DNA of 56,159 bases, filler included, from Perkinsus olseni (taxonomy: Eukaryota), in NCBI GenBank assembly GCA_013115125.1. It is 3 parts of 3 records of this genome, joined end to end, with 100 filler letters (N's around TTAATTAATTAA, not from the genome) between each part and the next. Parts side by side here need not be neighbours in the genome. Positions count along the whole stretch, not along the records: positions 1 to 18,765 come from JABANN010000610.1; 2 more parts are not named here. One strand, written 5' to 3'. The notes beneath the pieces were generated by a model that did no database searches, was not told where the DNA came from, and worked only from the letters and a program-made list of their open reading frames with translations. A program made the position numbers and the translations under genes. This document shows, in pieces, positions 1-25,510 of the stretch. The number at the start of each line of letters is the position of its first letter. The first letter of the stretch is position 1.

Positions 1-1
1 C

Positions 2-1060
2 CCTTGGATGTGGAACCCGGATTTGTCGCCGTGGACTTGGAACCCGGAAAGGCTTAGCACTTTAATTGGCTCCCTGACTGTGACTGGGCGCAGTACACGC
101 AGTTCGTGTTCTCCTCGCCCGTCTGTTGGTGTATATGTGAGCACAGCCGAAGCCCGCCTTCCTTGTCTACTCGCGCAGACCAGCGTCGAGGTCACCTCGA
201 CAGGCGATGGGCGAGCAACCTACGTCGACTTGATGTTCTACTTCAGACACGGCTCAATCAGCAAACTGCTGGAACTAGAACTCCGGCAACCCTATATCGG
301 AATCTCCAGGAATGAAATGGGGACCCTGAGAAGGTACATCCAAGATCATTGCTACTCCTTGGGGAGGAAGCGCGACATTTGGCAGTTCCAGGAAAATGTG
401 CTGGGCTACGTGTCCTTCTTCAAACCCGCTTATACTCACATATGCGTGGATGAGTCATCTTACCGTGATGGCGTGTACTGGAGGGCAAACCTCCTTCTTG
501 GTAGGCTGAAGGGAGGAGAGGAGATTCAGTACTTCATCCCAATGGTGTTTGACGAGCCCCGGGCAAACAGCGGAGACCTTCAAAAACTCGGCGCATTGTT
601 CGACCACAGCTACAACGCACGTCCTCTTGAGGAGCCGAGCGGCATGGTCGAAGGTAATGGTGAAGGGAGCGTAGAGAGCCGTGGACATCTCCAGCAAAGT
701 CAACCCGATGCTCCAACAGAGATGGAGCCTGGGAGTCAGCGTGGACCCGACACCTCCGCGGAATTTTAGAGTGCCAGCCTGCTCCGCGCTGAAGAAATGG
801 AAGGTTTGACAGAAGCATCCCGAGCTGATGGTCAAAAAGCCGTGCAGGACCGCGAACATCCATCCCACGGGCAACCTGACGGGGCAACCTCGGACTCGCC
901 TGGCGCGCAGGCTAAGCGAGCACTCGAGATCTCAGGCGGCAGGGGTCGCCAAACGTCGAGGAAGAGCAGCAATCCGCAACACTTAGTGCCCATATCGGAA
1001 ATGGGTAAATATTTGAGAATTGCTCCGTCGACGGCTGTACAGATGAGTGAACATGAATGA
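2..1060 (+). CDS. 5'-truncated hypothetical protein (lineage-specific family) interrupted by one in-frame TAG at 767-769; possible pseudogene
   Basis: ORFs 8..769 and 797..1060 share a frame (SAEF*SASLLRAEEMEG...). The frame is open to the window edge, with a PWxWNP repeat at the N-terminus and a low-complexity C-terminus. Confidence 0.5.
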
Positions 1061-1597
1061 GTTGTTCGACTTTGAGCGGTGCGTTGAGTTAGTCTCTCTG
1101 GCACGGGGTGTTTCCATCATCATGATAACAAACGGTTAAACAAGGGTGTAAATTGATGCAGTCGTATATTCGCCTACTAGGCAATGCCTAGGTCTGCAAT
1201 TATCTAAGCGGGAGATGCATGCATGCATGCGCATACCCTTTTAGTCATAGCTATTAGTCTTAGTATCAGCCTGCCATTAGTCTATGGTTGGATCATTAGA
1301 CCCAGATCCGATTTCTCCATTCCCTGTGTGTCGTCCGTATCTGCTGTCTCGCGCTAAGGAAGCTCCACAATGGAGCACACGGAGCACACGTTATCTCCGA
1401 GCTCCCCTTGAATCCACTTGCGTCACTGTCTGAGCTCCGTCTCACATCTGCCGTATTGTCCCTCATCGGGCCGTGACGATGCGCCTGAGAGCTTGCATAC
1501 CTATTCTGTACGAATTCCTGAATTCATTCACGCTAGGCCGAGGGTTACCAATGGGTGCATTCGAAGCCGGCATCCCAGGTTGCTTGTCGGCTGTATA

Positions 1598-2629
1598 ATG
1601 GTATTCCAACTTCCCCATCATTTTGAGGCCCTCCGTTGTACGGCCATCGAGAGGCTATGGGATGGTCAGCAGGGTAGGGAGCCGATGCACGACCTCATGG
1701 GTGATATCATGGAGTATTGCAGGAAGCCTGAGCTGAGGTTGGATTGTCCCCGCGAGGACGTATTCGTTGAGAAGCCGGCCAGGGCGGACTTCATGTTCAT
1801 CGACTGTGGTGTTGTGTACGGTGTCTCCCGGGAGGGGAAAAGCCTCGTTCTATACCGCATGTGCACTGCTGTCGGCCTTGCGCCCTCTACTACGAAGCTC
1901 TCGGATCTGTGTCTTCTTGCTTCCGAGGGAGTTGCTTGGAGATGTTACTACGACGAGGGCACCCGCCACCTGGTCGTGCTATATGATAATGGCGGAACCC
2001 TGTCGATCCGTGACATGGCGAACGGTAAGACGAAAAGGCCTATCATGCTTCCATGCCTAGCTTCGCGCAGTGGTAGACTCGCTGGCGTCATTGTTATTGG
2101 GGACTTGCTCTATGCGGCGATGGTGTTCATCAAGAAGGGCTTGTATTGCAGATTCGAGATCCGCTATGTGCAGTGCCGTAAGGCCCAGGAAGTCAGGCTA
2201 GCCTACGAATTCCATGAACCAGGTGATGACCCCAGCTTTTCTTTCATCCGTTTCTCCCCGGTGCCCGATCGCCCTCGCGCTGTCGACTTCATCTATAAGT
2301 CCGATTCGACGTTGCATTCGATGAAGATCGACGTGGTCAGGGAAAGTGGTCCCACACTATTCAGCACAAGGAGGGATGAAATGGTGGAGTCTGAGAGAAT
2401 ACGTGGCAGTCTTATAAGGAACACGCCGGGACTCGGTTTCCTTTTGATCGAGGAGGGCGATTTCTACGTGCTCCGTCATGGTAGAGGACTGAAGAAAGCA
2501 GCAAGGATTGCCAAGTGCGGAACAACTCTGCCATCTTCGGTGGTATTCGGCGACTGGAGTTTTCGGTATACCTTGAAGCTCATCACTGAAGACCTTGCTG
2601 TGGTGAAGTACCATCCATACCTTCTGTGA
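1598..2629 (+). CDS. Intronless hypothetical protein (about 343 aa), probably from an expanded lineage-specific family
   Basis: Long uninterrupted ORF with protein-like composition. First ATG at 1598 (MVFQLPHHF...). No recognisable catalytic motif. Confidence 0.65.
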   Translation: MVFQLPHHFEALRCTAIERLWDGQQGREPMHDLMGDIMEYCRKPELRLDCPREDVFVEKPARADFMFIDCGVVYGVSREGKSLVLYRMCTAVGLAPSTTKLSDLCLLASEGVAWRCYYDEGTRHLVVLYDNGGTLSIRDMANGKTKRPIMLPCLASRSGRLAGVIVIGDLLYAAMVFIKKGLYCRFEIRYVQCRKAQEVRLAYEFHEPGDDPSFSFIRFSPVPDRPRAVDFIYKSDSTLHSMKIDVVRESGPTLFSTRRDEMVESERIRGSLIRNTPGLGFLLIEEGDFYVLRHGRGLKKAARIAKCGTTLPSSVVFGDWSFRYTLKLITEDLAVVKYHPYLL

Positions 2630-3357
2630 GCCGCCACCGAGGAGCTGCTTCCGAGTGAGGCCTCGAATGTTGTTATTGCTCCTCGGCTGGCATCATGGTG
2701 TCTGAGAATATCATCGAATACCGTCGAAGGTCTAAAATCTGAGTTCCAGTTGAACACTGCCTTGTGTGTGGTAGTTTGAGAGCTGCTCGTCTCGAGTCTG
2801 ACTCGGGAAGGCAAGCATCCGCTTCCGTTCGGTGCTCGTCGATTGATGGGTGATCGGCCAACCAGCAACATGCTTTGAGCATGATGCTTGCCTAGGGTAA
2901 CTTGTTGTAACTATCATTACAGTTCATACGGGTCACGTGCTTGGAAGTTCGAACCTCGGTTGCGCACACTTCAGCGATCGAAAACCTGCTGGCGATCGTT
3001 CTTTACATCGAAACCATTCCACTTGACCTCCACTAGAATGCCCCAGTTCGGGAGTAATGACCACTTCTAACACTTGCTGACTCCGCAGGTGGCACTTACT
3101 GCTCAGGGGCCTATTTCATAGGACGTTTTTCTTAGGATCCTGAGCGGTTAGGACCCCCCAGACAAATCGGGCACTCTAAGTGTCCAACTAGGCTAATTCT
3201 CACACTGAGCGTAGCTTACTAAACCCGAGCTTATCCTAATGGGGGATACGTAGGCGCAGTGGTCGCCCAAGTGACCCTCTTCGATGCGTACTCGTATCCC
3301 ACAGGACTTACTTCTCCGCGGACTTCATGTTATCAGAAGCCGAGTACAAAATAAAAT

Positions 3358-3429
3358 TGATTCACGGAGGGATCGAACCTGAGTCAACCGTATGCTTGTC
3401 ACATGCTCTGTCCGCTACGCCAGATGCAC
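3358..3429 (-). pseudogene. Degenerate tRNA-like sequence (possibly Ala-AGC derived)
   Basis: Minus strand reads ...CTGGCGTAGCGGACAGAGC... (A-box-like) and ...CAGGTTCGATCCCT (B-box) at tRNA spacing. Stems pair poorly. Confidence 0.45.
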
Positions 3430-3801
3430 AGGAAAAACTATAAAGTGGATCAGGGTCTCAAGTACCGACGGACCATTTTCGAGATCGAAACATTCCACAT
3501 ATCTTAGCGACTTGCAGCACCCAACTCGCAAGTAAGGAGAGTTTATGCAAGAAAATCGATAGTAATTCCTCAGTCGGACACGGCGTATGTCACCACTGCT
3601 AATAAGCACCCGCAGACGGTAACGTTGTTCCACTGAATGCATTACTCCCGTAGACAGGCATTGTGACTTGGAGTAACTCTATGATGACGCTAGCGCCTGT
3701 TATCTGCCTGTGAGTAATTCGCATCACCTGCGGCCAACGCCCTCGATGCTTCGAATAATCGTGCGTTAGCCTTTGCGAGATCTTGTTTGATTTAATCGAC
3801 C

Positions 3802-6289
3802 ATGTTAAGTCCATCGAGAAGCGTATTGGGACCGGCAGCGTTGAAGTCGTTCCAGAATTTGGGCAAGGCGGCGTTCTCTACGCATGGCACACGGAGTGTC
3901 AACGTAGCTGATTTTTATAATAAGGCCAGGGCTTGCGGTGTTGGTTACTTCACAGGAGTACCCGACTCTCTTTTGAAGGACTTCTGCGCGTAAGATAGAC
4001 GCGACTTCATTTGTATCTTTCATGCTTCGACTTTAGATACGTTACAGATCACGCGAAGTCTGATGAGCATGTTATTGCTGTCAATGAAGGGAGCGCAATC
4101 GGACTTGCTGCCGGATACCATTTGGCTACCGGCAAGCTCCCCATAGTGTAGGTCGATCAATTCGGGGTCTAATGTTTTTTCTGACACCTCTAGCTGTCTT
4201 TAGATACACTCAGAACAGTGGCTACGGCAATATGGTCAATCCTCTCCTGTCCTTGGCTCATCCAGGAGTATATGGGATTCCGATGCTTGTAATATGAGGG
4301 TATCTTTGAGTTGACCGTGCAAGATACAGAAAGACTCAATTGACGGAGGTGAACTTCTGGCGGTTCAGGTACTGGTGGGCTGGCGTGGAGAGCCTGGCGT
4401 GAAGGACGAGCCCCAACATAAGATTATGGGGAAGTTACAGGCGGGTAATATCGCTGAGTGTAGGGGTAGAACTTGGGTTAAGCGGTCACGCGTAGGTATA
4501 ATTCAAGCTATGGATCTGGCTTGCACGGAGTTGCCTACGGAGAACACAGAGGCACTTGAAGCGCTCGAGGCGGCAGCGGCACAGGTAATATACTGGTTTC
4601 TCTAGCTGAAGGTCCTCGGTTCGAATCCCATGTGCTTCCTTTCAGTCTATGGAGAGCAAGAGTCCCCATTTATTGCTGGTGCGGAAAGATACTTTCTCGA
4701 GGTAGGTTGCGTCGGATATTCGAGGTTGTCGACCACAACTTGTGGTGATCTGCTGCATTGGAAAGATACGCTTTGGAAACCGCCGTGGATTATGACCACA
4801 CTTTGCCGATGACGCGAGAGAATGCGATCCAAGTGGTACTCAAGTCTGGCGGTGATCAGGCCACTTATGTTGGCACTACGGGATATCTAAGGTAGAAGAT
4901 GGCAAGTTGCAGAATAGGTCGTCGATGTTGCCAACAGTCGGGGTATTTATTCACGAGTGCCGTTGTTTTCCTTCAGTCGTGAATTATTCGAAATTCGAGC
5001 TAACGAGTACGGCGGAGACCATTCCCACGACTTCCTCTGCGTTGGTAATATGGGCCATGCTGGATCGATCGCCGAAGGTAATACCCCCGGGTCTGCTTCT
5101 CCCTCGCTTCGACCTAAGATACTCTTTCATTTGATTAACTTATAATTCATCGCCATAACCTCTCTTTGATGGTGATTGAAAATTTTTGCTGTGTATTAGT
5201 ACACGGGTTAGACGCGGGAGTTCTGATCCGCTGTGGAGTATTAAAAACTGAATTACTGGTTAACTTGCCCATAGCGGGACTATTATCATCGGTTGCAGAA
5301 CCTCCCTTCGTTTGCGCTTGGATTTTCCCTTGTAATCATTGCTCTTCATTTTTATAGGTAATTATCCGGTCGCTCGTTTCTCCACGTTCAGCCTGGACTT
5401 TTCGCTGTCTCTGGAGAGAGTTTCGTGCTTGTCAGGCTTGGCCACCCACATGCCGTCCGACTCGCCGGTGGTGTGCATGGATGGTGATGGAGCTCTCCTC
5501 ATGCACATGGGGTCGATGGCCACCAACAAAGCTAAGAACTTAATTCACGTTCTGGTAGGAGTTGCCGGGGATCGAACCTGGGACCTTTTGTATGTCCTCG
5601 CTTAGGTGAATAATGGGATGCATGAGAGCGTCGGAGGCCAACCAACGGCTGCTGCCGGTTTGAATTTGTGCGGCATCGCTCGAGATGCTGGGTAGTCGAA
5701 AGGTCGCCGGTTCGATTCCCGGCAGAGGTTTTTTATTTGTTCAGTTATCCGACTGCAATTCGTGTGCGTACTGAGGAGGAGCTGTCAGCAGCAGTATCGA
5801 ATGCCGTGGCGCATCTCCGTGCCGGGCCTGTGTTCATCGAGGTGCTGGTCAAACCCGGGGTCCGAAGCGATCTTGGCAGACCTACTACCACGCCACAGGA
5901 GAATAAGGTAAGATTTTTCGGGCGGAATACTTTCCAATATGACAATCTATTCTGCCAACTAAACGTCCGCATGTTCTTTTTTGTGATTCGCTGGCGATCC
6001 GCTTTCGAAAAGGACTCTTCGTAGACTAACACAGCTGCGGTCCATCCCGACTCGTCTCGATATTACAGTGGCCTCATGCCGCTCATACATCGCACCATTT
6101 CAAATCTCAGAGATATCTGCCGTTGGTCCCACCATTCAATGACATGAGATTCAACACTTTGTCGCATTGTCGTTCTATTCTCGGGTCTTCAACCGACTTA
6201 GCTCTCCTCTTCCACAACGGTTGTGGCTTTTTCAGGACGCTTTCATGCACCGAATTGAGAAGATACAGGGAGGAAGTAAACAAGCGTGA
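3802..6289 (+). CDS. aepY: Phosphonopyruvate decarboxylase (ThDP-dependent), 12 exons
   Basis: Spliced exons give [110 protein letters not shown] and [19 protein letters not shown]. All junctions are GT..AG. Confidence 0.93.
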
Positions 6290-7559
6290 TGTCGTGGAGA
6301 TGAAAGATCCTCCTTATTCTTATCGTCGTATGATCGAGTTACTCCACTGGTATATTTCTGTTCTTTTTGTGTCATATGTGCTGCGCTTCTCTCCAGTAGT
6401 TTTGCATTTCTGCTGTGTGAAAAGTAGTAGTACTCGGAATCCGAGCTACTATCCTCCGAAACTGTGCTTTCTTTCTTGTCCCCTCGAGGTAGTTCTCCTG
6501 GAGAACTTCTCCATCACGTTGTGTGGCAGTTGTCAATTCTCGGGGCTTTTTGAACAGGGGGCGTTCAGATTTCAATTGGTGGTTGCGTGGTCTCTCTTCG
6601 TCGATGGCCGGTGTCCCTAAATTCCCCGATTGGCATGCCATGACGTGGAGCTGAGATACAATCACCGCTCTCAGAGTGAATCACTATCGCGAGCTGGAGG
6701 GGGCCGAACTGCCGAGTGTAGAGATTGTCCCTGTATTACACAATAATTGTCTTCGATTTCAAGTTTTTGCTGTGTTGCATATAGCGTGACGCTAGAGCGC
6801 ATTACTCAGATGTTATTGTTATTTAAGCTCGTGTAAAGCCTACGACCTTTACTCATAACGAGTGTCTTGGGTTCGGTTTAATTTACTACAGAGTGTTGTG
6901 CTGAAGAGTTGTTGAAGCGCTGTGTTTGTATGCCAGAGGCTTCACGATAGTAATTTAGGTGTTCGCAATTGAGGATCCAAGTTGGATCATCCAACTGCTG
7001 GTTTTGTTATGGATGCAGTTCACGAGATGCAGAGGGAATGGTAGTGAACGGGTGGGGTGGGCTGCGGACACTAAAATGGGGAATTACCTAAGGGAGGCTC
7101 ATGTAAAAACTGGAACTGTGGAATCCTGATTTTCCGCTTTTTCTGGTTGTAGACGGGAACTTCGTGTGCGAAGTGCACTGTTTGGATAGAACCGAATGCT
7201 CGAAGCGAGATATCTTGAAAGTTTTACGTTAAAACCGCGAACTCCTGCATTGAGTCGGCTCTAAAGTGTTCACCGAAAAAGGACATCATGGTTTTTCCCG
7301 CAGAAGGCCAGCCTGTGGCGGATGTCGGTAGCTTCCCGAAGGTTGGCCTTGAGTCTCGGGAGTTTACAATTGGTGCCATTATAGTGCGCAAGGCGCTGCT
7401 CGCGAGAGCCGATGTTCTGAAAGTATTGGTTCGAGGATTCTCGTGGCTTCGAAAGATGCGTTGTAGCCACGTCTCTCATAAAATTCACAGATATCCGAAT
7501 GAGTTGTCAGGTCTTCACAGTTTCTTCATAGTGCGGGAATGTGTCCATTGTAGTGCAAC

Positions 7560-8330
7560 TGGTCGACGTTTCCGCTGTGCATCGACAGAAGGTTTAGTGC
7601 CGAATGGATTTGGTCGTCGCGCAGTCAGCGCCTGACCTGAAGCTCGAAGCCGGTCCTTCAGTTGGTTACTTTGACTCGCAGGTAACCAACCGAAGTAGTC
7701 GCGGAATTTTCCTGCCAGCAAAGCCTCCGAGTGCTCTCGGCAGTTTCTGACAATGGCGAATAACTCGGTTATACGCGCGCGGAGTCTTCGATGGCTGCGG
7801 TAACAATGCACTTGGCTCGTATATATAGAGAGAGCTGGCGCAATGCGCTGGGCGCATGGCCAAATCACTCGGCCTGAATGTATAGCTGTTTCGGCTATTC
7901 TTATCAGCGATCGTTGAACCTCGCATGACAGTCACTGTCAGACACTTGGCGGAGTAACGGAGAATTTTTGGTCTTCGACCAGAGGTCTTTCATGGGGATT
8001 TTCCTATCGTTCGAACCCTATGATGGAGCAACTTCGCAATATGGGCGAATTGCCCAGCGAACCGACAACTATGTGACTCACACGATATGACCTTGGTTGG
8101 ATCATTCGTGGTCGAATACTTCCGTGAGCTAACGTGGCTACTTCACGGAAACCTGGCTCCGCCACAGAGCAAGCTGGTTCCAGAGGTGCTGAGGACATCC
8201 CGAAGAGTGTGCCGAGTCACAACAACGCCATCGAGGCAATGAACAGTGGACTGAAGAACGGCGGAATCAACCCGAACATAAGCCTGGCGTCTCTGCTCGG
8301 GGAGTTGCTTGCGGCTTGCGCAGACTAAAC
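7560..8330 (+). mobile_element. Decayed Mutator/MULE-type DDE transposase remnant
   Basis: GYFTETWLRHRASWF, then a frameshift, then GAEDIPKSVPSHNNAIEAMNSGLK. This matches the MULE YF..TW...W...P.TNN..E..N..K region. LCID and FDG upstream are candidate catalytic Asp motifs. Stops and frameshifts present. Confidence 0.55.
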
Positions 8331-10979
8331 TCATCTTGGCGCTATGCCGGAAGAAAGGCTTGCCTTCAACCATGGACAGTACGTCGATGCCAGTGGCGAC
8401 TGATTAGCGCAATTCCATCCAAGGTCACTGAAGCTTACGCTGTCTATGAACACTGCCGAAAAGCAAGGTCGTGTCACACGACTCGTGTGGTAGCATAGGT
8501 TTCCGGCGTCGCAAAGTCAGTTGAGAGACTGCGGTGCTTTAGGAGGGGGGATAGTTGCTCGCTTTGAGCTATAGGAAGAAGACTATGCTCTCAACCGTTG
8601 TGTCGTGTTGACAACTTTCTTCGATACTTCGCTCTTGTTGGCGTTGCGTTGTGGAGCGTAGCCTGGAGCGTATGGAAGCTACCGCACGCCAGATTAAATC
8701 GAATCTATTTTCTTCAATCTCTTCTGAGGGATTCCTCGAATGGTTTGAGTCGAATCTGGCATTCGACATTTATGGTATATATTTTATGCCGTTGGTCCTT
8801 CTCATTGTCAAGGTACAATGAGTTTTAATCTGGCTAGTGCTCATCTCCGCCTTTCTCGCAGAATTGGCGCTGGGACACGCCTCTGGTCAGAGACGAGCCA
8901 GCTTGAATGACGTCGGAAGTTCCGACTCGAAAGGTAAGTGGGTATCTTGTAGAGATAATGTGACAGTTTCACACTGGGGCCCAGTGGGTCGGGCCCACTG
9001 TCTGGATTTTCTGGATGGTCTCCGGTTCACCTGGAGTGGACCCCTACTGAGGGGGGAGTACTGGGCGGTCACCACTCGCAGCTTGGTCTGAGCGAGTTTG
9101 TCAGAACTCCGGGTTAGAGATACCGTCTGATGCTTTCAGGCTAGTCTTGGAGAGGCTTGGTTCGGCCGGCTAGCAGACTCTGCTAAGCAGAGACTCTTTG
9201 ACGGCAGTAGTAGGGACTCCCTACTAGGGGGATGGCTCCGCTAGGTGCACGGATTTTCTCACTCCTGTCACAGGAGTCATCAACAACATTCGTTGCATCT
9301 GAACTTCTCGCAGTACATAAGAGGTAGAAATACGCCATAACTTACTGCAAAAACGTGTCGTCGTGAAGCGGTTTCACAGTGAAACTTTCATTTCACTTTT
9401 CGTTTAGGACTTGGTACAATAATCGACGCTATTCAGAACATTGGGCGAGCTCCGAGCGAGTCGGCCTTTGCAAGAGGCGATGATGGGCTCTCTACCATCT
9501 CGGCGAAACCAGAGTGAAGCTGTTTTTTCGCCACTCAGTGGAACTGACGTCGCCTTCGTCATATCTGATACTGCTGCCGACCGCGGGCGAGCAGTCCATG
9601 AATGATGCCATCATTATGGTGGTCTGGGATAATACAAGATGATATCTCGCTGACATCCCATTGAGGATTGCCCGGTGTCATTTTCAACAATTATGCGACG
9701 TTTATTCCCACTGTTCGGCATGGACTCATGGTGCCTCGCTCGGGTCGTTCGCTAGGCCGCATCGCTTAGCTTCGGTGTCTTTCATGCAGAGGAAGCGCCG
9801 CTTCCGAAGCGGCTTCCTGGAAGCCCAGGATAGCTTCATCAACCCATGTCGTAATGCTCAGGCTTGCAGACTGTCATAGTGTGATAACGTTTGGGTCCCA
9901 AACTTTGGGACTGAATAACTTGGGTCATTTCCGGTAATCACATCGTGATTCTCGAATCTGCAGGATCGAGCAGAATGGAGAACCGCGAACCCTGGGCCCC
10001 CAAGGTGGGGCACAGTTCATTAACTGAGGGTTCGCAGTGTACGCGGAGCTGGCGAGTATTCACTGGAACAGGTAGGCTAGATCCTCTGGAATGCGGAGAC
10101 TGCGTGGAGCGCTCTCTGGGCTGGGTCATGCGAAAATCTCGAACTGAGATTCAAACATAGTTACTGGCCACGTATACTGCTTCAATCGATTCAACAACTC
10201 TATTTGAGAGAGCTTATGCCTCGCTAAGAGGAATGTCTGTGACGATTATATCACTACTGCATCGATGTGTCATCACATTAATAATGTGATATTAGTTCAC
10301 CGGATCCGTGTGTGCTCGTCTAGGTCGCCTCAGTAAGCTCAGCTTACACGGACGGATAACATCGTTATCCCAGCTTGTTTGAACGCCGTCTCTGAGCCCC
10401 AGAGTCTGGGGCAAATGGAATGAAGTGTGATCAATGATCACTGATCAAGGATAGCAGCCGCTCCTTCGCATTGGGGTCGCTCAGTTGCGTCGCTCCGCGA
10501 CAAATGCACCCCGATGATGCATCAAGATACTGGGAGTCCCAGCCAGAGAATGCTATGTCCCAGTCTGAGACATAGCATTCCCTCAGAGAGAATCTCTCCG
10601 ATTAGAGCGGTTTGGCAGTAATTCCTACCTTGGAAGCTGCATTTCGACCTGTGATGAGTATTACCATCACCCATTGGGTAACGGTCGGCGATCGTCGGTC
10701 GCTGACAATCGACAACAGATGAAGGCTCCGAGATCGATGATTTCGAGCCTCGAAATTCGAGGTGAGATACCTCTGGTCTCGAAATCTCTGCTAGACAGTC
10801 TGTCTAAGACAGATGCTCACTTGAGAGTCGACGAGACTCCCTAGGAGACAGTTAACCTCCGCGGTCGGTGAAGACAGCATTCGTGATTCCCATGCCAGCT
10901 GCCAATGGCTGAGTGGCGCGCTGGTACCGATTGGGCGTGTGAACTGAATTCACTCTTCTCGCAGAAGTTTCAGAGAAGA

Positions 10980-11277
10980 GTGTATCTCGGCTCGTCTTGG
11001 TGATGAAGTGTGTGACGCCATCACAGTGATGGCGTTCAGCCGAGCTACCGTAACTGTTGTGACCGTTCTCACCGACAACGCGAGCAACGTAACCAAAGCC
11101 CGCAGGACTCGCATTATTCTGCTTGAGCGCTGCTGCAAAGTCACTGCACTGACCGGCTGCGTTTCGGTCGGCTGCTTGGCCCATCACAACGCTCTGCTCG
11201 CGGAGAGACTAATGAAGGAAAGGCGCAAAGAGAGTCCACAGGGAAGAGCAGCTAACTCGCGCAGTTTGCCGAGATGA
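10980..11277 (+). mobile_element. hAT-family transposase remnant
   Basis: VLTDNASNVTKA followed by VGCLAHHNALL matches the hAT TDNA.N and CxxH motifs. Flanking frames are broken. Confidence 0.6.
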
Positions 11278-14095
11278 CTGTTGCCAGCGTGCTTCACCAA
11301 AATGCTATAGATGATAACCTTTTCTTGAGAGGTCGGGCCTCTGAGGCCATGCGAGAACCCCTCCCGAGCGCTAGGGCGTTGCGCAGCTAGCGGCCAGCCC
11401 AACAGATTTTTTGGTTCAGGATCCTGGAAAACTGAACTTCTCAGTTGTAAGTCGGCTGCAGACGTCGCTACTGATCCTTCTGCAACTTCTGTGACACAGA
11501 TCTTGTGTTGTCATCTCCCAAGTTGGGAGTCCCAACGGACTTGCGTTCTGTACGTGGTTGAGAAACCTCCTTTACGTAGAAGCCTCAGTAGGGGTTCGTG
11601 AGAGTCCCTTACTTTGCTGAGGGCCACGGCCTGCGTGTTCTCCATGTAGGCTAGAGAGCCTCTAGAAATCCATGTCCATGACCTTCAACAGTCGGATGGT
11701 CGTGTCTCTTGAATGACATGATACCGAAAGCGCTCGTGTTGACCGGATTATTCGTCCCTTATTCTTCACTGGCTCTTTTTTATTCTACCCTCGTCTTTGG
11801 CGCGGTCCCGTCTGTACCGGCATGCTGCTTGTTGCGAGATATCTAGACGGCTGGATGGAGTGTCATCACGAGACTTATTGCATGACTCGTGGTCACCCCA
11901 GGTGCGCTAGAGGATCATATCTGTGAGCAAATGGTGGCAGTTGATTCGAGTTCTGAGGAGAGAGTCTAGGAGCAGGCTAGCGCCTCCAGCAAAACGAAAA
12001 CGGCTGGATTCGGAACAGAAGAATCGGAGGGCAGCTGGAGGTGGGGCGCGTCTCCCGCTATGCGATAAGAGCATCGCTCCGCCGCCTCTAACGTTTCGAT
12101 TTCGCTATAGCTCAAATGGAGTCTTCTACGGTAAAAGTTCTACCTAACTTCGTATTACAGGGAGCCACTCTCTATTGAATACTGCTTGGTATTCGAGCCT
12201 GCGTTGATTATGAGTTTGTGGGAGGAGCTGGAGGAAGCACGCAGCGCAACTCAGGGAATGACGGTCAAACATTGACCGATGAAGAGTCGTCCATTGACCG
12301 GAACTCTTCCGAGCAGTTCGCCATCAGAACATCGAAGGTCTTCTTCTAAAGTCCTGGCACAGAGCGGATTCACGATTATAACTACAGCGGCCAGGCGCTC
12401 TGGGCAACTTTTGATGAGACCTATGGCCTCACTCCTCCGCTGGGCTGTGCGAGGGTAGCTGCGTGACGACTCCGTCCTCTCCCCATGATGATTCCACACA
12501 TGCGCCGCCCTGAGATTGTGCAACATGGTGCTCAGCCGTTTCAGCATAGTGCAGCATAGTGGTCAAGATCCTCCTCTATGGAGGCTTTGGTGCGATTCCT
12601 AGACAGACCGGAGTCTGATCAACTGCATGTATTCTGGAGATGTGCTCAATGCTAAGGCTATGAACGTCGAGTTGAGACTCCTCTCCCTGAAGGAAAGCAG
12701 CCCTTAATGCGCCCAGGTTGGAAGGTCAACGACGAGGGAACTGAGGAACCCTCACTGAGGAGGGAACCAATGAGGGTGCGAGCGAAGAAAATGGTGCAAC
12801 GTTTGATGCTCCTGCGTACTACTGCGGGGTAATTGCTAATTCTGCACAATCATGAGCAGGATATTTCGTGTTGAGTTTTGAGCGCCCGAGCTTGATGTAT
12901 GGAGTCCTTATATCCGATAGTCACTGACTGTTTATCATAAATGATGAACCCATTAGAGACTGTTCAATGAAAATATGGGATCTCAATTCAAATCGTTTCA
13001 TTGGGAAAATTGAGAATCTCATGAGCTCGAGCCTCGAACTTGTCCAGGAAACCGGGAGAAGTGTTCCCGCCCAAGTTTGCGAGCCCCCGGAAGGCCCGTA
13101 CAATATTTTATCAAATACACTTGTCAGCGGTCTTGAAGAACTTCCTCGGAGAGCTTCTTACTGAAGGTTGCATAGTCGTGCGGGTTTTTTTCATCTATGC
13201 AATGTGAGTGGATTCTCATGTTCCTGTTTTTGGCAGGTTGCGTATACTCTTAATGCTCGCTATCCCCATAGAAGTTCAAGAAGTACTTTATGGACGGGGA
13301 AAGCAGCTTCTACAGGTGAAGGTAAAGCTTCTTCCTCGTCAACTTTGTCGAAGTTAGGAGCTTCAGGAATCAGTCCGGAAGCTGCGGAATCTCTTCGGTA
13401 GGGAAGAAATATGACTCGAGTTAACGGCCATTCAGGAATTTGAATGATGGAAGTATCGCTCCGAGAATTGATCACCCAGGCAGAAATGTCGCACACCACA
13501 CGGCAATGCACGCGACAGCATTTCGGAGCGTGCATTTGTTGGCATTTTCAAGGCTATAGAGTAAACAGTGCCACTCACTGTGTTGATCGCATCGAGAACC
13601 CAGCTGAGCCGTTATAATCTCATCGCCGATGCGTTTGAAGACAGCCTATGAAAACTGAGCAGATTCAAGGCTGGTGGTGATGCTTATCGCAACCTTAACC
13701 TTGAGAATACGCTTTGCGAATCTAGAACCTGTTTTCAACAACCTTGTATCAGAGAGGTTAACCAAACATCTTAACACATAACTAACTGAGAGCTTGAGAG
13801 CTTCATGAGAGCTTAACACATAACCAAACCGCCGACGGCCTAGACGTGATACTATCCGAAGTCCCCGCTAGCCATATCTTCCCCGTATGAGAAGTCTCTA
13901 CTGGACGCGGCGATAGTACTAGCGACCAGTCCGGCGGCCCCTCCGGTCATTTCCCGGGGTTGAGGTTTGCCGTGCGTCATTGGAGTAGAGGCATGAGATA
14001 TTCACTCCCTCAGTCGACAATTTGTCCCGAGTTGATAACGACCGTCTGTAGCGTGAATCGTCTCGGAGATCAGTTTGTTTAAAGTTTCGTTTTTT

Positions 14096-16347
14096 ATGGT
14101 AACGAAACGGCCGCTGATATACGAAGAGGATGGTCTGCGATGCGTTACACCCTATGAAAGGAGCTTCGAGATTAGGATCAAGGAACGCTGGGCAGGAAAG
14201 ACGATAGCGGAGCTGTTTGCTGATGATTTTCGATTTCTAGGCCGTGGGCTGGCAGGGTAAGTTTTGACTGAGACCCACTAGTGGGAGGCTCTCGTGGAAA
14301 TCACCAACGATTGGTTTGCAGTGTGAACGAAGAAGCAACAACGACAGCGTGATTGTATACCGCTGGTCTATTTCATTGTTCAAGTTGCTCAAAAATGAAC
14401 GTTTTTCACGGTCAGGTCGGCCTTCAGGCTGCTGCGGGATGGTGATTTGAAGCTCGCGCGTGGTAGGGAGGAACTCAGAGTGAACGAGGGCCATCGAGTC
14501 GCCCCGGGTGAAAGTCTGTGGCTGAAATCGATAAGTGAGACTGGGTGGACGCTTGCGAGTCAGCCGTAGAGGTACCCCCGGTGGTGAGCCCCCGCGATAT
14601 CTCTAGGTGCTGATGAGTATGAAGTTTATAGGATGAAGTCCAGAAATGGCTCTTTCTGTCTCAGGTGTGGAGAATCCTATCCCAGCAACGCCGATGAAAA
14701 TTTTAATGGAGACGGATGAGTTCCTGGCTGTCGATAAGCCTTGTGGTCTCCCGGTAAGTAGCTGTCACTACACCGACTTGGTCGTGTTGTGTTTCGGCCC
14801 ATGACAGTAGACCAAGAGCCGCTCCATGGCCTGGAATGCCTGGAGAGCCCGGAATCCAGTCCCTCCCGTCGTTTGTTTTCCTCGAGTTGAACCCTCGTCG
14901 TTACTTTCGATGGTGTTTTCTTGCACACGCGAATAAACTTCTGTTTCTGCTTGCCCATCTACTTTTATTCTTCTCAGATGCTGAATAGGTTTTCCCTCTA
15001 ATCAGGTGCATGAATGTGTGGGTTATTACTACAACACCTGCGTGAAGATCCTCGAGGCTTCCCGTGGATACCACCTTTTTCCGCTACATCGACTTGATGG
15101 GGTCACTTCGGGGATAGTAAGCACTTTCTCTTCGTGGTGCGCTAATATCTTTCTGTCGGTCGTCCGATGACATCCCTGAATTCGGGAGGTTATCTAAAAT
15201 AACTTAAGAGACTACCACCAAATACTTGACACTACTTTTAGCTACTAGTTAATTACTTAACTTTATGATTGACTCATCCGATATAACCGGGGAGATATCT
15301 TATCTCCCCGGTGAACTTACAAAGAACTGAAAGAGAACTTTTCACCATTTCCTGATGAAGCACATCGTAAATTCGTGAGAATGTTTCCTGTTGACGTAGA
15401 GCATGGAACAACTCCCATCAGCGGCATCCCTCACGCTGTGTAGGTAGTTTTTGCGAAGACCGCCAACGCAGCTCGTGAATTCGAACAAGTCCAGCGAAGA
15501 CGTAGCGCGAATAAGACGTATATTGCAAGAGTTTCCGGAAGATGCCCTGCTGGCGACGGTGAGTTACGGGTCGCGGTGGGTTGCTATAATTGGCAAATTT
15601 CGTAGTTGTTGTTGCTGCACCCCTCCGAGTCGATCGTACTGATGGTACTGTAACCATCAGCGAAGACGGTCGACCATCCCTAACACGGATAAGCTTGATG
15701 AAGTACATACCTGATCTGGATGAGAGCATCGTAAAGTGCATTCCCGTGACGGGGAGAAAACATCAAATTCGAGTAAGTCAGCGGACCTTCGGGAACTCGG
15801 AGAGATACCCGAGTACCTCTACAGTTCACAGCGGTGTATCGCTGAATGCTCTCCCATCATTTGCTCTGTTCGACTGCTCGCTACCAGTGAGACTCTCACC
15901 GTGAGAGGCGTTCTTGCATGTGATATCGAGACTGATATCGTTATGGTCAAATAGCGATGGTTTTCTACGCTTCCACGCGGACTGCGCCCTCATTTGTGAA
16001 AATCTGTTTCCTTTCTTCCCTTATGATTGATACTCGTCAGCGAACTGAGTGAATTCTCCCAGCCTTGTCGCGCTATCTTATCTCAGATGCGCTATCAGGT
16101 GCATCTGCAGTCGATTGGCTTGCCAATCGTTAATGACGAGAAGTACGGTGGGATCTTCGATGAGGAGCATCCATTCGCTGTTCGCCGACTGCCTGGCCGA
16201 GGAGGCCTCTCTGACGTCACCATCCCTGGAGGTATCTTTCTGCACGCGTGCTCATACTCGGCCAGGCTGGACGATGGCACGGAGTTCCACTTGCGGACAG
16301 ACGCCCCTGTTTGGGCTGAAGAGCCCTGCCCAGCTTGTATGAAGTAA
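14096..16347 (+). CDS. RluA-family pseudouridine synthase (RPUSD2/Pus9/Rib2-like), multi-exon
   Basis: Exons encode YEEDGLRCVTPYE..IKERWAGKTI, AVDKPCGLP|VH, catalytic LHRLDGVTSG, PVTGRKHQIR|VHLQSIGLPIVNDEKYG and IFLHACSY. Confidence 0.88.
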
Positions 16348-17044
16348 GTTGTATCTTTCAATATTGCGAATTTAATGGGTTTCATTTTACCGGTACTAAC
16401 TTTGTTTCGTTGAGCTGCTGACGATTCATTCATTTCTTGCGGGAAAGGATGAGAAGTAGTTCACTTCGCGAATCTTCGCGATCTTCTAAACAGCAAGTGC
16501 GGATCTTGTAAGGGTTGTGTAGCTCACTAGGTCATACTTCTTCGGAATGAGACACTCACACGGGAAGAGCGCTTCTCTTACAACTCACCGTCACGAAGAG
16601 AGGGATAACTTTCTCGTGATGTGCGGATGGCTCCGGTATGATCAGAGCAAGGGCCATGACTCGAGACTCTCAAGTGAGCAGCCTGCTCTGTTGGCAAGGC
16701 AGGAATACCCAAGGCAGCCTGCCTAACCACTTTTCAGAGCAGGCATGAGAGCAAGGCGCTCGGGAACCGAACGAGCGAGTGAAGCCCCTCCGCGCCAACT
16801 GGTCAGTCAATTTTCGCCGTCACATATGCCGGGACTGATCGATCCACTGCGCGCGGCCCTGTTGGGCAAAGTCAGCTGCGCCACCACAGGATACACTCCG
16901 CGAGTTCGGGTCACGGTGTCGCATTCCGCGCCGTTAGTTATCGCCATAGATCGTTCAGTGTGCCCGAAAAGTTCGTTTTCCATCTCCAGCCTGCGCGGGA
17001 CGAGGTTCTGTTTTTGAACGTCCTCAGTCTCTGCTCTTCGCTTG

Positions 17045-18470
17045 ATGCATGGCCATTACCTTCTCCTTCTAATTGCGTCCCACATCATCCGAGCGCTGGC
17101 TCAGGAGTTCTACGGCACCTACTGTCACAGCAAGAGGCTTTTCCCTTATCCTGAGGTCCCATTCGATACCTTCTGTGCGGATTTGAGCCTGCGTAACGAG
17201 GTGGATGTCGATGCGAGGCTCCGCTTTTCGACGAGAAACAACGTTGAAGTCGCGACGCCTGTGGTGCCCTTCGAATGGGAGACGGAAGAGATCCAAACTT
17301 TCGAGGTTCACGAGTTGGTCGTTAATAGCACAGAGCTGAGAAATGGTACGGGGCTTACTGAGTGGCTGAATGAAACGAGAAAGTTGTTAAAAATCGACGC
17401 CAAACTCAGCCCGGAGTCCCTTCGAATTTATCCAACACCATCAACGCGGTACCGATACAAGTATCGTCTTACTGTGGCGATAGGGAAATACCACCTCGTC
17501 TTAGACGACGAGGAGCCAGTCTTATACAGAGAATTCGCGAGGAGGAACAAATCACCCGAGGAGGGCGTTCTGACACCCCGGCCCCGCACTGCTGTTGCTG
17601 TGAGCCCCTCCGAAGGGCGCGTGGAAGTAGGGAGTTACGAGGTGCATGGTCAGCCGAGCGGCTGCTTGTCAACGGAGGTGGATATTCGTGAAGGAGACGA
17701 GGCTTTAGAAGCTAAGTTCACCTTTAAGCTCGCTGGTGGAAGCGAGGAGATAACGGATTACATGATGTTGAGAGGCGATAAAGTTATGAAGGTAGACAAG
17801 GAAGTGACAGACCCGATGATTGTGATGCTGTCCGAAATGTACGTCTGGAGCGTGCAGGCAGCTACCAACATTCGAGGGTTAGCCCTCTACCATCACCATT
17901 GAAGCGAAGGGGAATAAGCAAATCCTTGTGAACCTTGGGAGGGCTCGTGATGGGTCACCTGATGCGACGGTGATTCTGGATAAGGTCTCCGGAACAGGAA
18001 GGGAACCCACAATACTTGACGACCGCGCTGCAACCGCACCCCTCAGCACCGCTGCGGTGTCTCCTCGCGTTTTGACTCCCTATGTGGCCCCGGTGAAGGC
18101 TGGCACCTACAGCGTCTTTGGTCACCCGAGCGGGTGCTTGTCAACGGAGGTGGATATTCGTGAAAAAGACGAGGCTTTGGAAGCTAGGTTCACCTTCGAT
18201 CTCCCAGAAGGCAACGGGGAGACCATCGACTATATGAGGTTGAGCGGTGATAGAGTTATGAAGGTAGACGAGGGAGACACGGACCCTACGGATGTGATGA
18301 TGGCCGAGATGCAAGTTTGGAACGTGCAGGAACATACTGGGGTCCGAGACCTTGCTCTCAATAACATCGCCATTGAACCCACTGAAGACGATCGAATCTT
18401 GCTCCATCTCGGAGTGGCCCGTGATGGGTCTCCTGCAGAGACGGTGGAGCTCGCCAAGGTGTCGTCGTGA
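17045..18470 (+). CDS. Secreted protein with a duplicated domain of about 125 aa; frameshifted near 17890
   Basis: Signal-peptide-like MHGHYLLLLIASHIIRALA. Two copies of G.Y.V.G.PSGCLSTEVDIRE.DEALEA.FTF. Copy 1 lacks 2 nt relative to copy 2. Confidence 0.75.
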
Positions 18471-18765
18471 GTAGTTTGATACTCGAATTTATCAGAATTT
18501 ATCATGCTGTTGATGTTGTAAAGGAGCTGCTAGCATTGTGCTATCCAATCAGATCACCCCGGCACACCATTGCCCGATCGATTTCATGAACTTTCACTTC
18601 CGTTTCAATTCCGGGGAATTGACCTCTTCCATCCCCGTTTCATAAATTATAAATCATAATTCCTTTGTCAATAATTTCGCAACGAGCACTTTCTATACCA
18701 TTCAGAAATCTATTTGGCGGATAAGGCCGCCTATTTGGGGGTCGAGGATTTCACGTTAGCGTTTG

Positions 18766-18865
18766 NNNNNNNNNNNNNNNNNNNNNNNNNNNNNNNNNNN
18801 NNNNNNNNNTTAATTAATTAANNNNNNNNNNNNNNNNNNNNNNNNNNNNNNNNNNNNNNNNNNNN
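18766..18865. other. Assembly gap with artificial TTAATTAATTAA contig linker
   Basis: N44-ttaattaattaa-N44, which places stops in all six frames. Confidence 0.97.
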
Positions 18866-20247
18866 ACATAATTTTGTTCATCTCGAGGCGGGCGAGATTG
18901 TCGTTCACCACTTCCAGGGTTTCACCACTTTTAGTGGGCCAAAGCCTCACAAATACGGATTTTCTCGCCCTTCACCATTTTCAGGATTCACCATTTTCAG
19001 GCGGGACCGGATGAATGGAGCTTACTTAGAACGACCGCCTCGGCCTACGGGGCCGGCGGTTTCAGATATACATGCGAGTATCTTGGCGAGCGATAATGCA
19101 ACAATAGGGATACACAAACAATAGTAGCAACGGTCATATACTCGCATCGTCGTACCCAACATGCTCTATACGTCATCAAAACCCCAGGTCTCCGAGATGA
19201 AGCAACTCGCGGCACCGCGGTTACGCCAGTAGGGTCGACATGATCTCACAACGGCAACGAAGGCAATGCGAACGCAAACTGTGCCGAGGCCCAAGGCGAT
19301 GCTGCAAATGGCAATCGCGGTTCGGCAGACCTCTCGAAGACCTTAGTTGAAACTTTCTCATACAGCTACAGCGTGGCTGCCACACTGCCAGGGGGGCTTG
19401 AGAGGATTGAAACCTCTAACTACGGGGACTGGGAGTCGGGACGGTGGCCGCGGCGCACTTGCAGGCGGTGAGGGCGAGAAGGGGTTACGCCGAATGCCCT
19501 TCCTGTGGCCTTGGGCCAACAGTTCCTGCGTTTGGCTGCGCACAGCGGGTACACAACCCAAGTCCCGTCTAACCGGCTTCCGTCACGGAAGTTCTGTGGC
19601 AAGGCGGGAGCGTCCGTGCGAAGACAAACGCAACGAAGCCGGACGTACCAGAAGGGTCCCAAACTCTCGGCTTACCCGTTCGTGGGTGCTGCCTTTACCT
19701 CGGAAACTTGGTGTGCAAGTCGTGGAATTAGACCAGATGCGTGACGCACCATGCGTCTCGAAGATACTTCTCAACCTAAGTTCCGCTCCATCGCCCGAGG
19801 GCGATCTTTTCAACTGGCAAACCCTGACGGAAGGCAATGAATCTCATTGCATGAGAGCACCCGATCTACGCATTGTATGTAGAGTGCCGCGTGCAACGTT
19901 TCGAGGAGTGATACAAAAGTCGTACGGAAGCTGCCGGGGAAGGGCCTCGTGGTTTTGACGATGAACAGTGGAATAGATAATTCTGATACGAGGCTGTTTG
20001 CGGAGAGCCACTAAATGGCTCTTAAAACTGTCTGCAAATGTTCCGGGACGAACCAACTCATCGAAACGAAGCAACTCTACTGTTCTCAGGAGGAACATGA
20101 TCCCATGTTGACAAGATAAGCTGTCGATTACTACTGAGGTAAATCTTCCTCGACGAACGGGAGGCGGTTCTGCTCAACGCGTGAACCCAAGCCACCTTTC
20201 GTTTGTCAGTTTGTCATCATGTTTTCTCGGTAACGATTTGAGCGACC

Positions 20248-20538
20248 CTGCAGCCTCTGCGCGAGTCGATCAATTTGTCTTCAAGATAATGCGGTCATAG
20301 CCGCAGGACTCCCGGTGGCTGGTCTGCACCTCGCCATAGAGGACGACGTGACTAGCCCCTAGTCCCCTCTCTTTCCTTCTAGTACCCCAATCTGAACGGC
20401 TCTGCAGCCTTTGCGTGAGCCGATCAATGTGTCTCAAGACATGGCGGTCTTAGCCGCACGACTCGGTATACAGTGGCTGGTCTGCGCCTCAGCATAGAGG
20501 ACGACGTGACTAGCCCTCTGTCTGCTCTCTTCTAGTAC
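20248..20538. repeat. Two-copy tandem duplication (about 154-bp period) with conserved hairpins
   Basis: Copies 20248-20385 and 20402-20538 share ctgcagcct, gatcaat, gtggctggtctgc, catagaggacgacgtgactagccc and ttctagtac. Confidence 0.85.
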
Positions 20539-21614
20539 AAGACGTATTCCACATTACGCACTCTGAGTTGCGTCAGGGCCACGTCCAATTTTCCTTGCCA
20601 GCCAGCATTGGATACCCGAGCAGAGGTCTGGATCTCGTTGGCTCCGCGATCGTCCGCTAAGCTTCTGCGCAACGGACAACCAGTTTGTGCCACGCACTTA
20701 CTATTGAACAGCAACCCCTCGTAAAAAACTCTGCTAAATGTCCCCTTGTGCGGGTTACAAGCCGCGGCATTTGATCTGCATATCGTGGTAGCAAGGAGCT
20801 ATGCGCATATCATTATTGCCCTCTTCAATCGGATGGCACTGTGGGAGCGCCTCAGCGTGATCCGGATGGGAACTCAACATGAGAGAGAAGAAGAGCTGTC
20901 GCGGCCGGCGGTAGACGACGACAGGCCGATTAGCTATATGATGCACGCGTACGCAGTCGCGCGCTGACTCTACAGGCACTAGTTGAGAATTGGGCTGCGG
21001 CGTTCGCCCTCAATTACCGGTACCGATAGGACGGCTCCCAACCGTGCAAAGCATCATCTCTGTCTTCTCAAGCAAACTCCGCACAAAGAAGGTAAACCCT
21101 TCCCATGGAACTGAATCCTTATGAGAGGGTCTCGCGTGTCCGGCCGTATCCCAGTCGACGTATATCTTCACACCTTGGGAATCAAAAGAAGTGCACTTGC
21201 AGCGTGGAAGCCCGATTTAACCGCACCATTCCTATCATGTTGACGCACGGTTGTCGATCGAGTATTATAATCTATTCACCACGTATATGAACACCAGGGA
21301 CAAACACGTGGCTGGGACACGGTGGCTCGCTGTATCCGTAGCAGTATACTATGCTAGTCGATATATACTACGGTGGCTGCTGTATACTCCGCTGGATATC
21401 GTGCTAGTCGATGCCCTGACTGTGTTAACCCGCGCAACACTCATGGAAAGATGAGGAGGGCAAGACAGACTTCATGGGTGTTGTCTTGTGCGAATCACTG
21501 CCACACAATGAAAGCTGCGCAGCTGATAGAAGCTGTGGAAACTCTATCGCGAAACTGTTTTGCACATTGTTGTAGCAAGCCGCCATGCAAACCCTCGTCG
21601 GGATCCTGTGCTTC

Positions 21615-22304
21615 ATGAGCTTTCGCAGCTTTGCTGTGGATTGGGAAGCCCCAGAGTCTCCCAGATTATACTTGTAAGCAGAAGTAACATTCATGCCGCT
21701 GACATTTGTTACGTCTCGTTCAGGAAAGTATTCTCGCAGCCTGATGCGTTGCCGGGAATAGAGACATCAGTCAATGCATCCGGAGGTAAGAACCTTGAGT
21801 CCGATGCCGGTACCACAGATGTCATCCTACCTCAGAAGGCGGCGTGTACGAGAGACCTGTAGGTAAATGTAAACAGCAAGGGCCTGGTAAAGTTTCCGGC
21901 TGCAGCTGTAACCAACCTTATACTATGGCGGGAGTCCAGGTGAGCAGGGAATCGCTGAAAATTGCTCCGAGGTATCCCGGTGGAGATGTATTAGCCGACG
22001 ATCGATCTGTACCTTCAATAGACATCTACACTCAGAACGATGCCGGCAAACTCCTTGCGGTCGTCTGTACAGAGAAGTGCTCAGAAGCTAGCAGCTGCCC
22101 CGAGCCTCCTAAGGGGTCGGTGGAATGCAAACCTTTCAAGTTTTGCCTCATCAACTGCGAAAATGATAAGGTGGGGCGGTTCGAGCTGTCTCAGGGAAAG
22201 TGACGTACATGATTTCTTCCTTTTGCCAGGACTGCCCCGGGAAGGGTGCACTCTGCAAGTCGACTGATGACCCTAAGGGACACGCTTGTATGTACCCCCT
22301 CTAG
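21615..22304 (+). CDS. Small cysteine-rich protein, multi-exon (start uncertain)
   Basis: Exon segments GKCKQQGPGKVSGCSC, VCTEKCSEASSCPEPPKGSVECKPFKFCLINCENDK and DCPGKGALCKSTDDPKGHACMYPL* separated by GT-AG introns. Confidence 0.65.
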
Positions 22305-22454
22305 CCCTAGCACGCTTACTGTACGGATAACGTCCAGGCGTCCGCCGCTCACAGTCGATTCAAACTTAACTCTGAGTAATTTTCAGTATTTGTCCATCCC
22401 ATTGATGGCTCAGTCCATCGTCTAGTCACACTATTACCTTAAAGATAATCATTG

Positions 22455-25258: not shown

Positions 25259-25262
25259 GTAC

Positions 25263-25456
25263 TGTGGTTGATTCCGAGCCCCTTCAACTGACTCCTCATC
25301 ATCGGGATACAACGCAACTGGCATAAGTGTGCAAAGAACGGATAAGGAAAGTAACAACAATAACAACTACAAGGTCCGGGAAGACCTAGCCTAGGCTAGG
25401 CTAGGTTCGGGGACAGGCGTCACAAAAACACAAGGGTTTGCGTGCTGACAGTGACA
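25263..25456 (-). repeat. 3' LTR
   Basis: Direct repeat of 31173-31366, with TG..CA ends. Preceded on the minus strand by a G-run PPT (plus strand cgcccccccagc from 25457). Confidence 0.96.
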
Positions 25457-25510
25457 CGCCCCCCCAGCAAACCCTGCTTGTAGAGCGGAAGGTCGTTAGC
25501 ACAGCCAAAC

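Follow-up and report, generated by a model that had tools for sequence, protein, structure and literature searches.

tRNA-like fragments with intact B boxes in three short introns of one Perkinsus olseni gene: a possible cluster of orphan TFIIIC sites

In fission yeast, clusters of the B box, one of the consensus elements of transfer RNA (tRNA) genes, recruit the factor TFIIIC without RNA polymerase III (Pol III). Herein, we describe a locus in Perkinsus olseni, a shellfish parasite, at which three short introns of a single phosphonopyruvate-decarboxylase-like gene each carry a fragment resembling the 3' part of a tRNA gene with an exact B box. The perkinsids are a lineage sister to the dinoflagellates, with unusual chromatin and gene expression. 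The window, that is, the whole stretch of DNA analysed, comprises 56,159 nt of assembly GCA_013115125.1 and consists of three joined contigs (1-18765, 18866-37602 and 37703 to the end). The contig linkers at 18766-18865 and 37603-37702 have the form N44-TTAATTAATTAA-N44, and adjacency between the thirds is not implied. All counts of motifs, copies and families given below cover this 56-kb window.

The closest described systems are the "extra TFIIIC" (ETC) sites, which one report presents as loci where TFIIIC occupies a B box while TFIIIB and Pol III are absent (PMC12409998). The present locus shares several properties with the ETC sites of yeasts and human. The B-box consensus occurs without a functional Pol III gene, as seen at four exact matches to the pattern GGTTCGANNCC that lie outside any tRNA call, and it is likewise independent of orientation and clustered. 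In addition, some ETC sites are thought to be relics of tRNA genes, as also appears to be the case here. However, three differences set the Perkinsus candidates apart. First, they are putative sites that sit in short introns of an expressed gene of RNA polymerase II (Pol II) in a perkinsid. Second, the B box is compatible with conservation in one of the two introns in which it can be checked (intron 10, but not intron 9). Third, the flanking variable-loop and acceptor-like bases are also kept, although TFIIIC is not known to need them.

Several other systems offer partial parallels. In P. marinus, some tRNA genes are present in hundreds of copies (PMC3706591). The present locus resembles the tRNA pseudogenes and decaying arrays of Perkinsus in that a pseudogene of this sort lies upstream of the gene (3347-3435) and in that the window contains mutated and truncated tRNA-Lys copies. 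Unlike these pseudogenes, the intronic pieces are only 3' parts, have different parents, are single-copy in the window and are found in three introns of one gene. Short interspersed nuclear elements (SINEs) derived from tRNAs also combine an internal Pol III B box with tRNA-like sequence and are often intronic, whereas the fragments described herein have no A box, no tRNA-unrelated body, no tail and no copies in the 56 kb. Introners, described in Amoebophrya (PMC7789003), are comparable in that foreign DNA forms most of a short intron, but they constitute near-identical families with terminal inverted and direct repeats, while introns 5, 9 and 10 are mutually dissimilar and have no such repeats. 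Finally, Dada DNA transposons (4.7-11 kb) insert into tRNA genes of P. marinus at the A-box region (TAGCTC), as PMC3706591 describes. These elements occur in the same genus and split tRNA genes into pieces; however, the P. olseni pieces have the variable loop at their start and are not accompanied by a transposon. Literature searches on tRNA-like sequences in Perkinsus introns, on SINEs and introners in Perkinsus, and on intron gain from tRNAs or filler DNA revealed no account of such a locus.

tRNA-like fragments in three introns of a decarboxylase gene

Several findings carry the description of the fragments. First, the pattern AGGTCNNNGGTTCGANNCC, which has 14 fixed bases, shows exactly three matches in the window, one each in introns 5, 9 and 10 of the gene, and none of 100 shuffled sequences contains a match (mean 0.00). 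Second, the B-box pattern GGTTCGANNCC shows eight exact matches compared with 0.51 expected, and 0 of 100 shuffles reach eight; four of these matches belong to a tRNA-Lys array, and the other four are located at 3369(-), 4618(+), 5568(-) and 5709(+). The latter, orphan B boxes in the orientations -, +, -, +, fall within 2.4 kb (3369-5719), and the other approximately 53 kb contain none outside tRNA genes. Third, when one mismatch was allowed in the B box, 13 more matches were obtained outside tRNAs compared with 13.5 by chance, so that the tRNA-like signal is local and exact, not diffuse. The sequence AGGTC is typical of the variable region of tRNAs, and a preliminary description of this DNA had reported AGGTC together with a B box in each of the three introns; the exact AGGTCNNNGGTTCGANNCC matches bear this out, and the B-box frequency in the window is not at background.

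The three fragments are preserved to different degrees. In intron 5, the fragment (4608-4630, + strand) occupies 23 of 61 nt and consists of a variable-loop-like AGGTC, a 5' T-stem strand and GGTTCGAATCC as the B box/T loop, with the AGGTCNNNGGTTCGANNCC match at 4610-4628 and the B box at 4618-4628. Neither a 3' T-stem strand nor an acceptor strand can be recognised, and no T hairpin forms in the fold. In intron 9, the fragment (5558-5588) lies on the - strand, antisense to the gene, and occupies 31 of 51 nt; it comprises AGGTC, a T arm with one mismatch and the B box GGTTCGATCCC, and its acceptor-like strand of 7 nt adjoins the 5' splice site; the AGGTCNNNGGTTCGANNCC match is at 5568-5586(-). 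The fragment in intron 10 (5700-5739, + strand; AGGTCNNNGGTTCGANNCC match at 5701-5719) is the most extensive, with 40 of 53 nt, and contains AGGTC, a T arm, the B box GGTTCGATTCC and a short acceptor-like stretch, followed by TTTTTTATTTG. This T-run resembles a Pol III terminator and also provides the pyrimidine tract that precedes the 3' splice site; its position after the acceptor-like stretch points to a piece of tRNA gene DNA, as opposed to a copied mature tRNA. For intron 10, the T arm had been described as a "perfect T stem" (GCCGG/CCGGC), and it does pair in the fold as a 5-bp stem with an 8-nt loop, but it contains mismatches in the canonical 7-nt register.

Other parts of the preliminary description hold as they were given, namely that the fragments fill much of their introns, that they differ from each other (no mutual copies by blastn-short) and that a T-run follows the acceptor-like strand in intron 10. 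Two observations go beyond it: the lack of the 3' T-stem strand in intron 5 and the existence of a fourth element at 3347-3435(-). The fragment of intron 9 may resemble tRNA-Ala and that of intron 10 a tRNA-Gly-type T arm. Taken together, these features suggest that the fragments in introns 5, 9 and 10 very probably come from tRNA genes, beside which no other source is reasonable, and we infer that they represent the 3' parts of three different tRNA genes, with the variable loop, the T arm and the acceptor strand and, in intron 10, also the T-rich trailer.

The fourth element (3347-3435, - strand) precedes the gene and diverges from it; it is a tRNA-like unit of full length that has decayed, with the A-box-like sequence TGGCGTAGCGG, the B box GGTTCGATCCC at 3369-3379(-) and a T-run. 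Its A box has one mismatch, no valid cloverleaf can be formed, and its fold is no better than those of shuffled sequences (z +0.73). The unit was called only by relaxed ARAGORN (-ps80), among 15 mostly spurious calls on the 18.7-kb contig that include c[3359,3435] and [4558,4639]; at still lower thresholds, the number of calls rose to 71 and 145, and the relaxed calls were rejected as noise. The RNA contigs have no cover at 3300-3403, over the upstream unit, which is uninformative on its transcription.

The host gene (3802-6289, + strand) has 12 exons and 11 introns. The spliced exon model translates to 417 aa identical to the deposited protein P0001, which is a hypothetical protein of P. olseni in NCBI and a phosphonopyruvate decarboxylase in UniRef. 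The Pfam domains TPP_enzyme_N (PF02776) and TPP_enzyme_C (PF02775) match pieces of the exons, P0001 carries both, and a JGI protein named phosphonopyruvate decarboxylase shows 50% identity over the alignment. With both domains and full-length similarity to named proteins, the predicted product is assigned to the phosphonopyruvate decarboxylases, a type of thiamine-diphosphate enzyme. Expression and splicing were observed in RNA contigs of four runs from four studies (X7, X8, X11 and X13), which contain all 11 introns as GT..AG joints, with the exception of intron 4 in X11; in each run, one contig spans all 11 introns. Introns 5 (4585-4645, 61 nt, phase 0), 9 (5555-5605, 51 nt, phase 0) and 10 (5692-5744, 53 nt, phase 2) are spliceosomal introns that are exactly removed from the mRNA, as joints in 4 of 4 runs skip precisely 61, 51 and 53 nt. 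The intron boundaries, which are those given in the preliminary description, are therefore settled. Most introns of P. marinus are shorter than 100 bp (PMC3101222). Moreover, sampled words of the gene stretch are present at 0.98-1.00 in DNA runs; in DNA runs of other strains (X9 and X10), the share of words is 0.40-0.41.

Several side observations concern the splicing of this gene. The 5' ends of the introns (3990-6235) read GTA in 11 of 11 cases and GTAATA in four, and GTAAGT or GTGAGT in none; the GTA start may be a local 5' splice-site habit of P. olseni. At intron 4 (4445-4498), the variant joint in X11 skips 52 nt and ends TA..GT with one G between, compared with GT..AG joints skipping 51 nt in the other three runs, and it may reflect a strain difference or a contig error. 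In all four RNA runs, some contigs follow the gene up to 4194 (intron 2) or from approximately 5105 (intron 8; 5102-5106), and the remainder is unlike the gene; the gene may share a repeat with further transcripts at these points, or an alternative exon or overlapping transcript may be involved. A 168-nt RNA contig of X7 lies entirely within intron 8 (5122-5288). In intron 3, a stretch of 22 nt (4310-4331) is 95% identical to 36843-36864 (E 5e-05), which belongs to another contig and lies beside a word of the TAAGATAC type. Finally, AG/ATAC ends 3 of the 11 introns, and AAGATAC is found inside introns 3 and 8.

Searches for known classes of elements were negative. The default ARAGORN search revealed six tRNAs in the window, at 31.9 and 37.7-38.6 kb, and none in 3300-6400; Rfam at gathering score revealed the same six and none at the gene, and Rfam at E up to 10 on 3200-6400 gave no tRNA and one weak snoRNA-like match (E 8.6). 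In type 2 Pol III promoters, such as those of tRNA genes, an A box precedes the B box; an A-box scan with TRGCNNARTGG gave three matches compared with 1.58 expected, and none beside the intronic B boxes. A functional tRNA was rejected on the basis of the absent 5' halves, the lack of a cloverleaf and the lack of an A box at the intronic fragments. When the 11 introns were compared with the window by blastn-short, introns 5, 9 and 10 gave just 10-13-nt matches, with no second copy and no family. No near-identical intron family and no terminal repeats indicative of an introner element were seen in the window. Three further candidates were also rejected: the primer-binding site of a long terminal repeat (LTR) element (complementarity extends past the T loop, and no LTR is nearby), a branch-point or splice signal (the B box is unlike the yUnAy-type branch-site consensus) and the scar of a Dada transposon (wrong position within the tRNA). 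Among folds of nine short introns and the upstream unit, none was clearly stabler than shuffles, the best being intron 7 (z -1.63), and introns 5, 9 and 10 were no better than shuffles (z -0.14, +0.33 and -0.52).

Of the interpretations in the preliminary description, the origin from tRNA genes thus stands, while its SINE fragments and small RNAs find no support here: for a SINE family, the 56 kb yielded no second copy, no adjacent A box, no tails and no target duplications, and a tRNA-like small RNA is unlikely because the folds do not surpass those of shuffles and intron 9 carries its fragment in antisense. Its remaining proposal, TFIIIC B-box sites inside the introns, is considered possible from the sequence features and is weighed below.

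Age of the fragments and competing explanations

The age of two fragments could be assessed using a sister lineage. P0005, a 192-aa open reading frame (ORF) call on a P. marinus-like genomic contig, is the sole sister sequence and is seen through degenerate codons. Over exons 9 and 11, this ORF is identical to P0004, a protein of P. marinus, but it is translated straight through introns 9 and 10, which occupy the same positions, with residues homologous to the introns of the window translated in the same frames. The consistency of P0005 with P0004 fails at zero mismatches and succeeds with one amino-acid difference; therefore, P0005 is P. marinus-like but not the exact P0004 allele. Since P0005 reads exon 10 in a shifted frame and the protein is known, the exon 10 DNA of the sister is almost fully determined. 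Compared with the window, 14 of 29 third codon positions differ (48%) versus 3 of 55 first and second positions, so the two lineages, as judged from these deduced codons, are deeply diverged at near-neutral sites. The tRNA-like parts of introns 9 and 10 are clearly homologous between P0005 and the window, and these introns, together with their tRNA-like parts, are probably older than the split from the P. marinus-like lineage, a conclusion in which we have considerable confidence. Two protein searches and an exhaustive HMMER search revealed no read-through ORF besides P0005, so that, of the four elements, the comparison between species covers those in introns 9 and 10.

The two introns differ in what has been kept. 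In the first 33 nt of intron 9, P0005 shows 5 definite differences among 27 informative positions, and three of these (5568, 5573 and 5575) break the B box. In intron 10, 2 differences fall among the 15 informative positions of the T arm, and the B box agrees with P0005 wherever a position is informative, which is compatible with its being kept; the remainder of the intron differs at 8 of 19. When the tRNA-like parts were pooled, 7 of 42 positions differed compared with 14 of 28 informative third positions as entered in the test (Fisher p = 0.0039; p = 0.015 with non-degenerate positions only). By this comparison, the tRNA-like parts appear to change more slowly than third codon positions and than the rest of intron 10. 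Under neutrality, the 28 intact motif positions in the P. olseni lineage would have a probability of 0.0003 to 0.05 for 25% to 10% change per lineage. In other words, given the age of the two fragments, intact motifs in P. olseni would be unlikely without constraint.

Herein, we propose that three different tRNA genes have left remnants of their 3' parts in ordinary spliceosomal introns of the decarboxylase gene and that, together with the decayed upstream unit, they form a cluster of four orphan B boxes. At the RNA level, these remnants would do nothing special: they are spliced away with the intron, they show no tRNA-like fold, and one of them is antisense. The intact B boxes would instead persist because, as DNA, they offer orphan binding sites to TFIIIC, a Pol III factor, similar to ETC sites, and this role would be independent of orientation and of a working tRNA. 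The independence of orientation and the lack of RNA structure fit a role at the DNA level. As a whole, this explanation, in which old tRNA-gene remnants have B boxes kept as orphan TFIIIC sites, is the best available, and we favour it tentatively, at somewhat less than an even chance. DNA-level constraint or TFIIIC binding at the candidate sites, taken as a claim by itself, may be given a similar and marginally lower weight.

Several points weigh against this explanation. The B box of intron 9 carries the three definite changes in P0005 and has been lost in that lineage, all three fragments show decayed pairing in the T stem, and intron 5 has no sister counterpart among read-through ORFs, of which P0005 is the only one. 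The comparison between species consists of one ORF call with degenerate codons and small counts. Moreover, the fragments were chosen for their perfection in this genome, so that the pairwise differences are mostly those of the other lineage, and the comparison with third positions is weakened; third codon positions may also overstate the neutral rate of introns.

The strongest rival is that the fragments are neutral relics of tRNA genes or pseudogenes that were once in or beside the introns, with B boxes left intact by luck and by the selection of a striking case. This is nearly as likely as the TFIIIC-site explanation, and we regard it as a serious possibility. It is consistent with the broken B box of intron 9 in P0005 and the decayed T stems, with the lack of a cloverleaf and of any default ARAGORN or Rfam call, and with the decaying tRNA-Lys array within the window. 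Adjusted for ascertainment, approximately 4 changes in approximately 22 informative motif positions in the sister are not clearly below the neutral rate for one lineage. Copies of tRNA genes are very numerous in Perkinsus, as are decaying arrays, and P. marinus has 349 tRNA-Leu and 116 tRNA-Gly gene copies (PMC3706591). However, neutral decay does not readily account for three motifs with 14 of 14 bases and a fourth exact B box in 2.4 kb, with none elsewhere outside tRNA genes in 56 kb, for two fragments that predate a split with 48% third-position difference, or for the lower variation of the tRNA-like parts relative to third positions and to the remainder of intron 10.

A different explanation, which we consider improbable, is that the fragments created the introns, i.e. 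that pieces of tRNA genes or tRNA-derived mobile elements were inserted into continuous coding sequence as filler at breaks or by transposition, in an introner-like or SINE-like manner, with the trailer T-run supplying the pyrimidine tract. Three such introns in one gene, the large share of introns 9 and 10 that the fragments occupy, the T-run directly before the 3' splice site of intron 10 and the acceptor-like strand abutting the 5' splice site of intron 9 would all be expected. In metagenome contigs, all 30 loci homologous to P0001 (32-49% identity) continue through these positions without interruption, which is what prokaryotic or cDNA-like sequences would show, and no perkinsid relative is among them. 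On the other hand, the three fragments are unlike each other and have no other copy in the window, target-site duplications do not exceed the 1-3 nt overlaps common to all 11 introns, and terminal repeats and an A box are absent. The literature search, in which bioRxiv supplements and Table S1 of PMC3101222 were outside the scope, gave no precedent for introns from tRNA fragments. The events, if any, are old, and the creation of introns is therefore indistinguishable from the entry of fragments into pre-existing introns.

A function at the RNA level, in which the excised introns would act as tRNA-like small RNAs or substrates of tRNA enzymes, or the antisense fragment would pair with a tRNA 3' end, is very improbable. 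T-arm-like hairpins are possible in two cases, namely intron 10 and the sense strand of intron 9, and the antisense fragment of intron 9 is complementary to approximately 31 nt of a tRNA-like 3' end; however, the three introns fold no more stably than shuffles, an acceptor helix is impossible in the absence of 5' halves, the orientations are mixed, and a T hairpin is lacking in intron 5. A resemblance by chance or an artefact of the assembly has a negligible probability, given three exact AGGTCNNNGGTTCGANNCC matches compared with none in any shuffle, the near-complete presence of the words in DNA runs and RNA contigs of four studies that splice exactly around the fragments.

Other features of the window

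The tandem array of tRNA-Lys(TTT)-like genes at 37703-38900 has a period of 144 bp and accounts for four calls. Some copies now have the anticodon TTC, which ARAGORN designates as tRNA-Glu despite the Lys backbone, and a truncated copy and a decayed copy are located near 38690 and 38800, respectively. An extra run of 97 N is present at 38399-38495. An apparently intact LTR retrotransposon (25263-31373, - strand) carries LTRs of 201 nt with 98% identity, a single ORF of 1816 aa that includes integrase domains and a sequence resembling a primer-binding site, TGGTGCATCATCC, directly after the 5' LTR; it is located approximately 550 nt from a tRNA-Arg(TCT) gene at 31919-31992 (+). The word TAAGATAC occurs 10 times in the window compared with 1.09 expected (35620-37090; also 5115, 45897, 50027 and 50456), with six occurrences within 35.6-36.6 kb on both strands, often as CCTAAGATACTC. 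Upstream of the decarboxylase gene, the long open frames at 2-769 and 1412-2629 (+ strand; 255 and 405 aa) gave no Pfam match.

Meaning for the perkinsids

Relics of tRNA genes and orphan B boxes are already known, and the new element is their setting in the short introns of one gene. The most specific claim, a selected cluster of orphan B boxes from different tRNA genes, in three introns and upstream of one Pol II gene, that predates the divergence of Perkinsus species, is at present unlikely. If the fragments are neutral relics, the large and decaying tRNA families of Perkinsus would litter even 50-nt introns; the locus would be a tidy curiosity and a warning to annotators that a B-box match in Perkinsus is not necessarily a tRNA gene or a SINE. 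If the introns were created by the fragments, pieces of tRNA genes would join the short list of documented sources of new introns. If, however, the cluster has been selected, it would represent the first ETC-like TFIIIC element in an alveolate, and fragments of tRNA genes with their T-rich trailers would have supplied most of the sequence of short spliceosomal introns. Should the B boxes be both bound and selected, the Pol III-independent role of TFIIIC would extend to the perkinsids, with its sites nested in the introns of an active gene.

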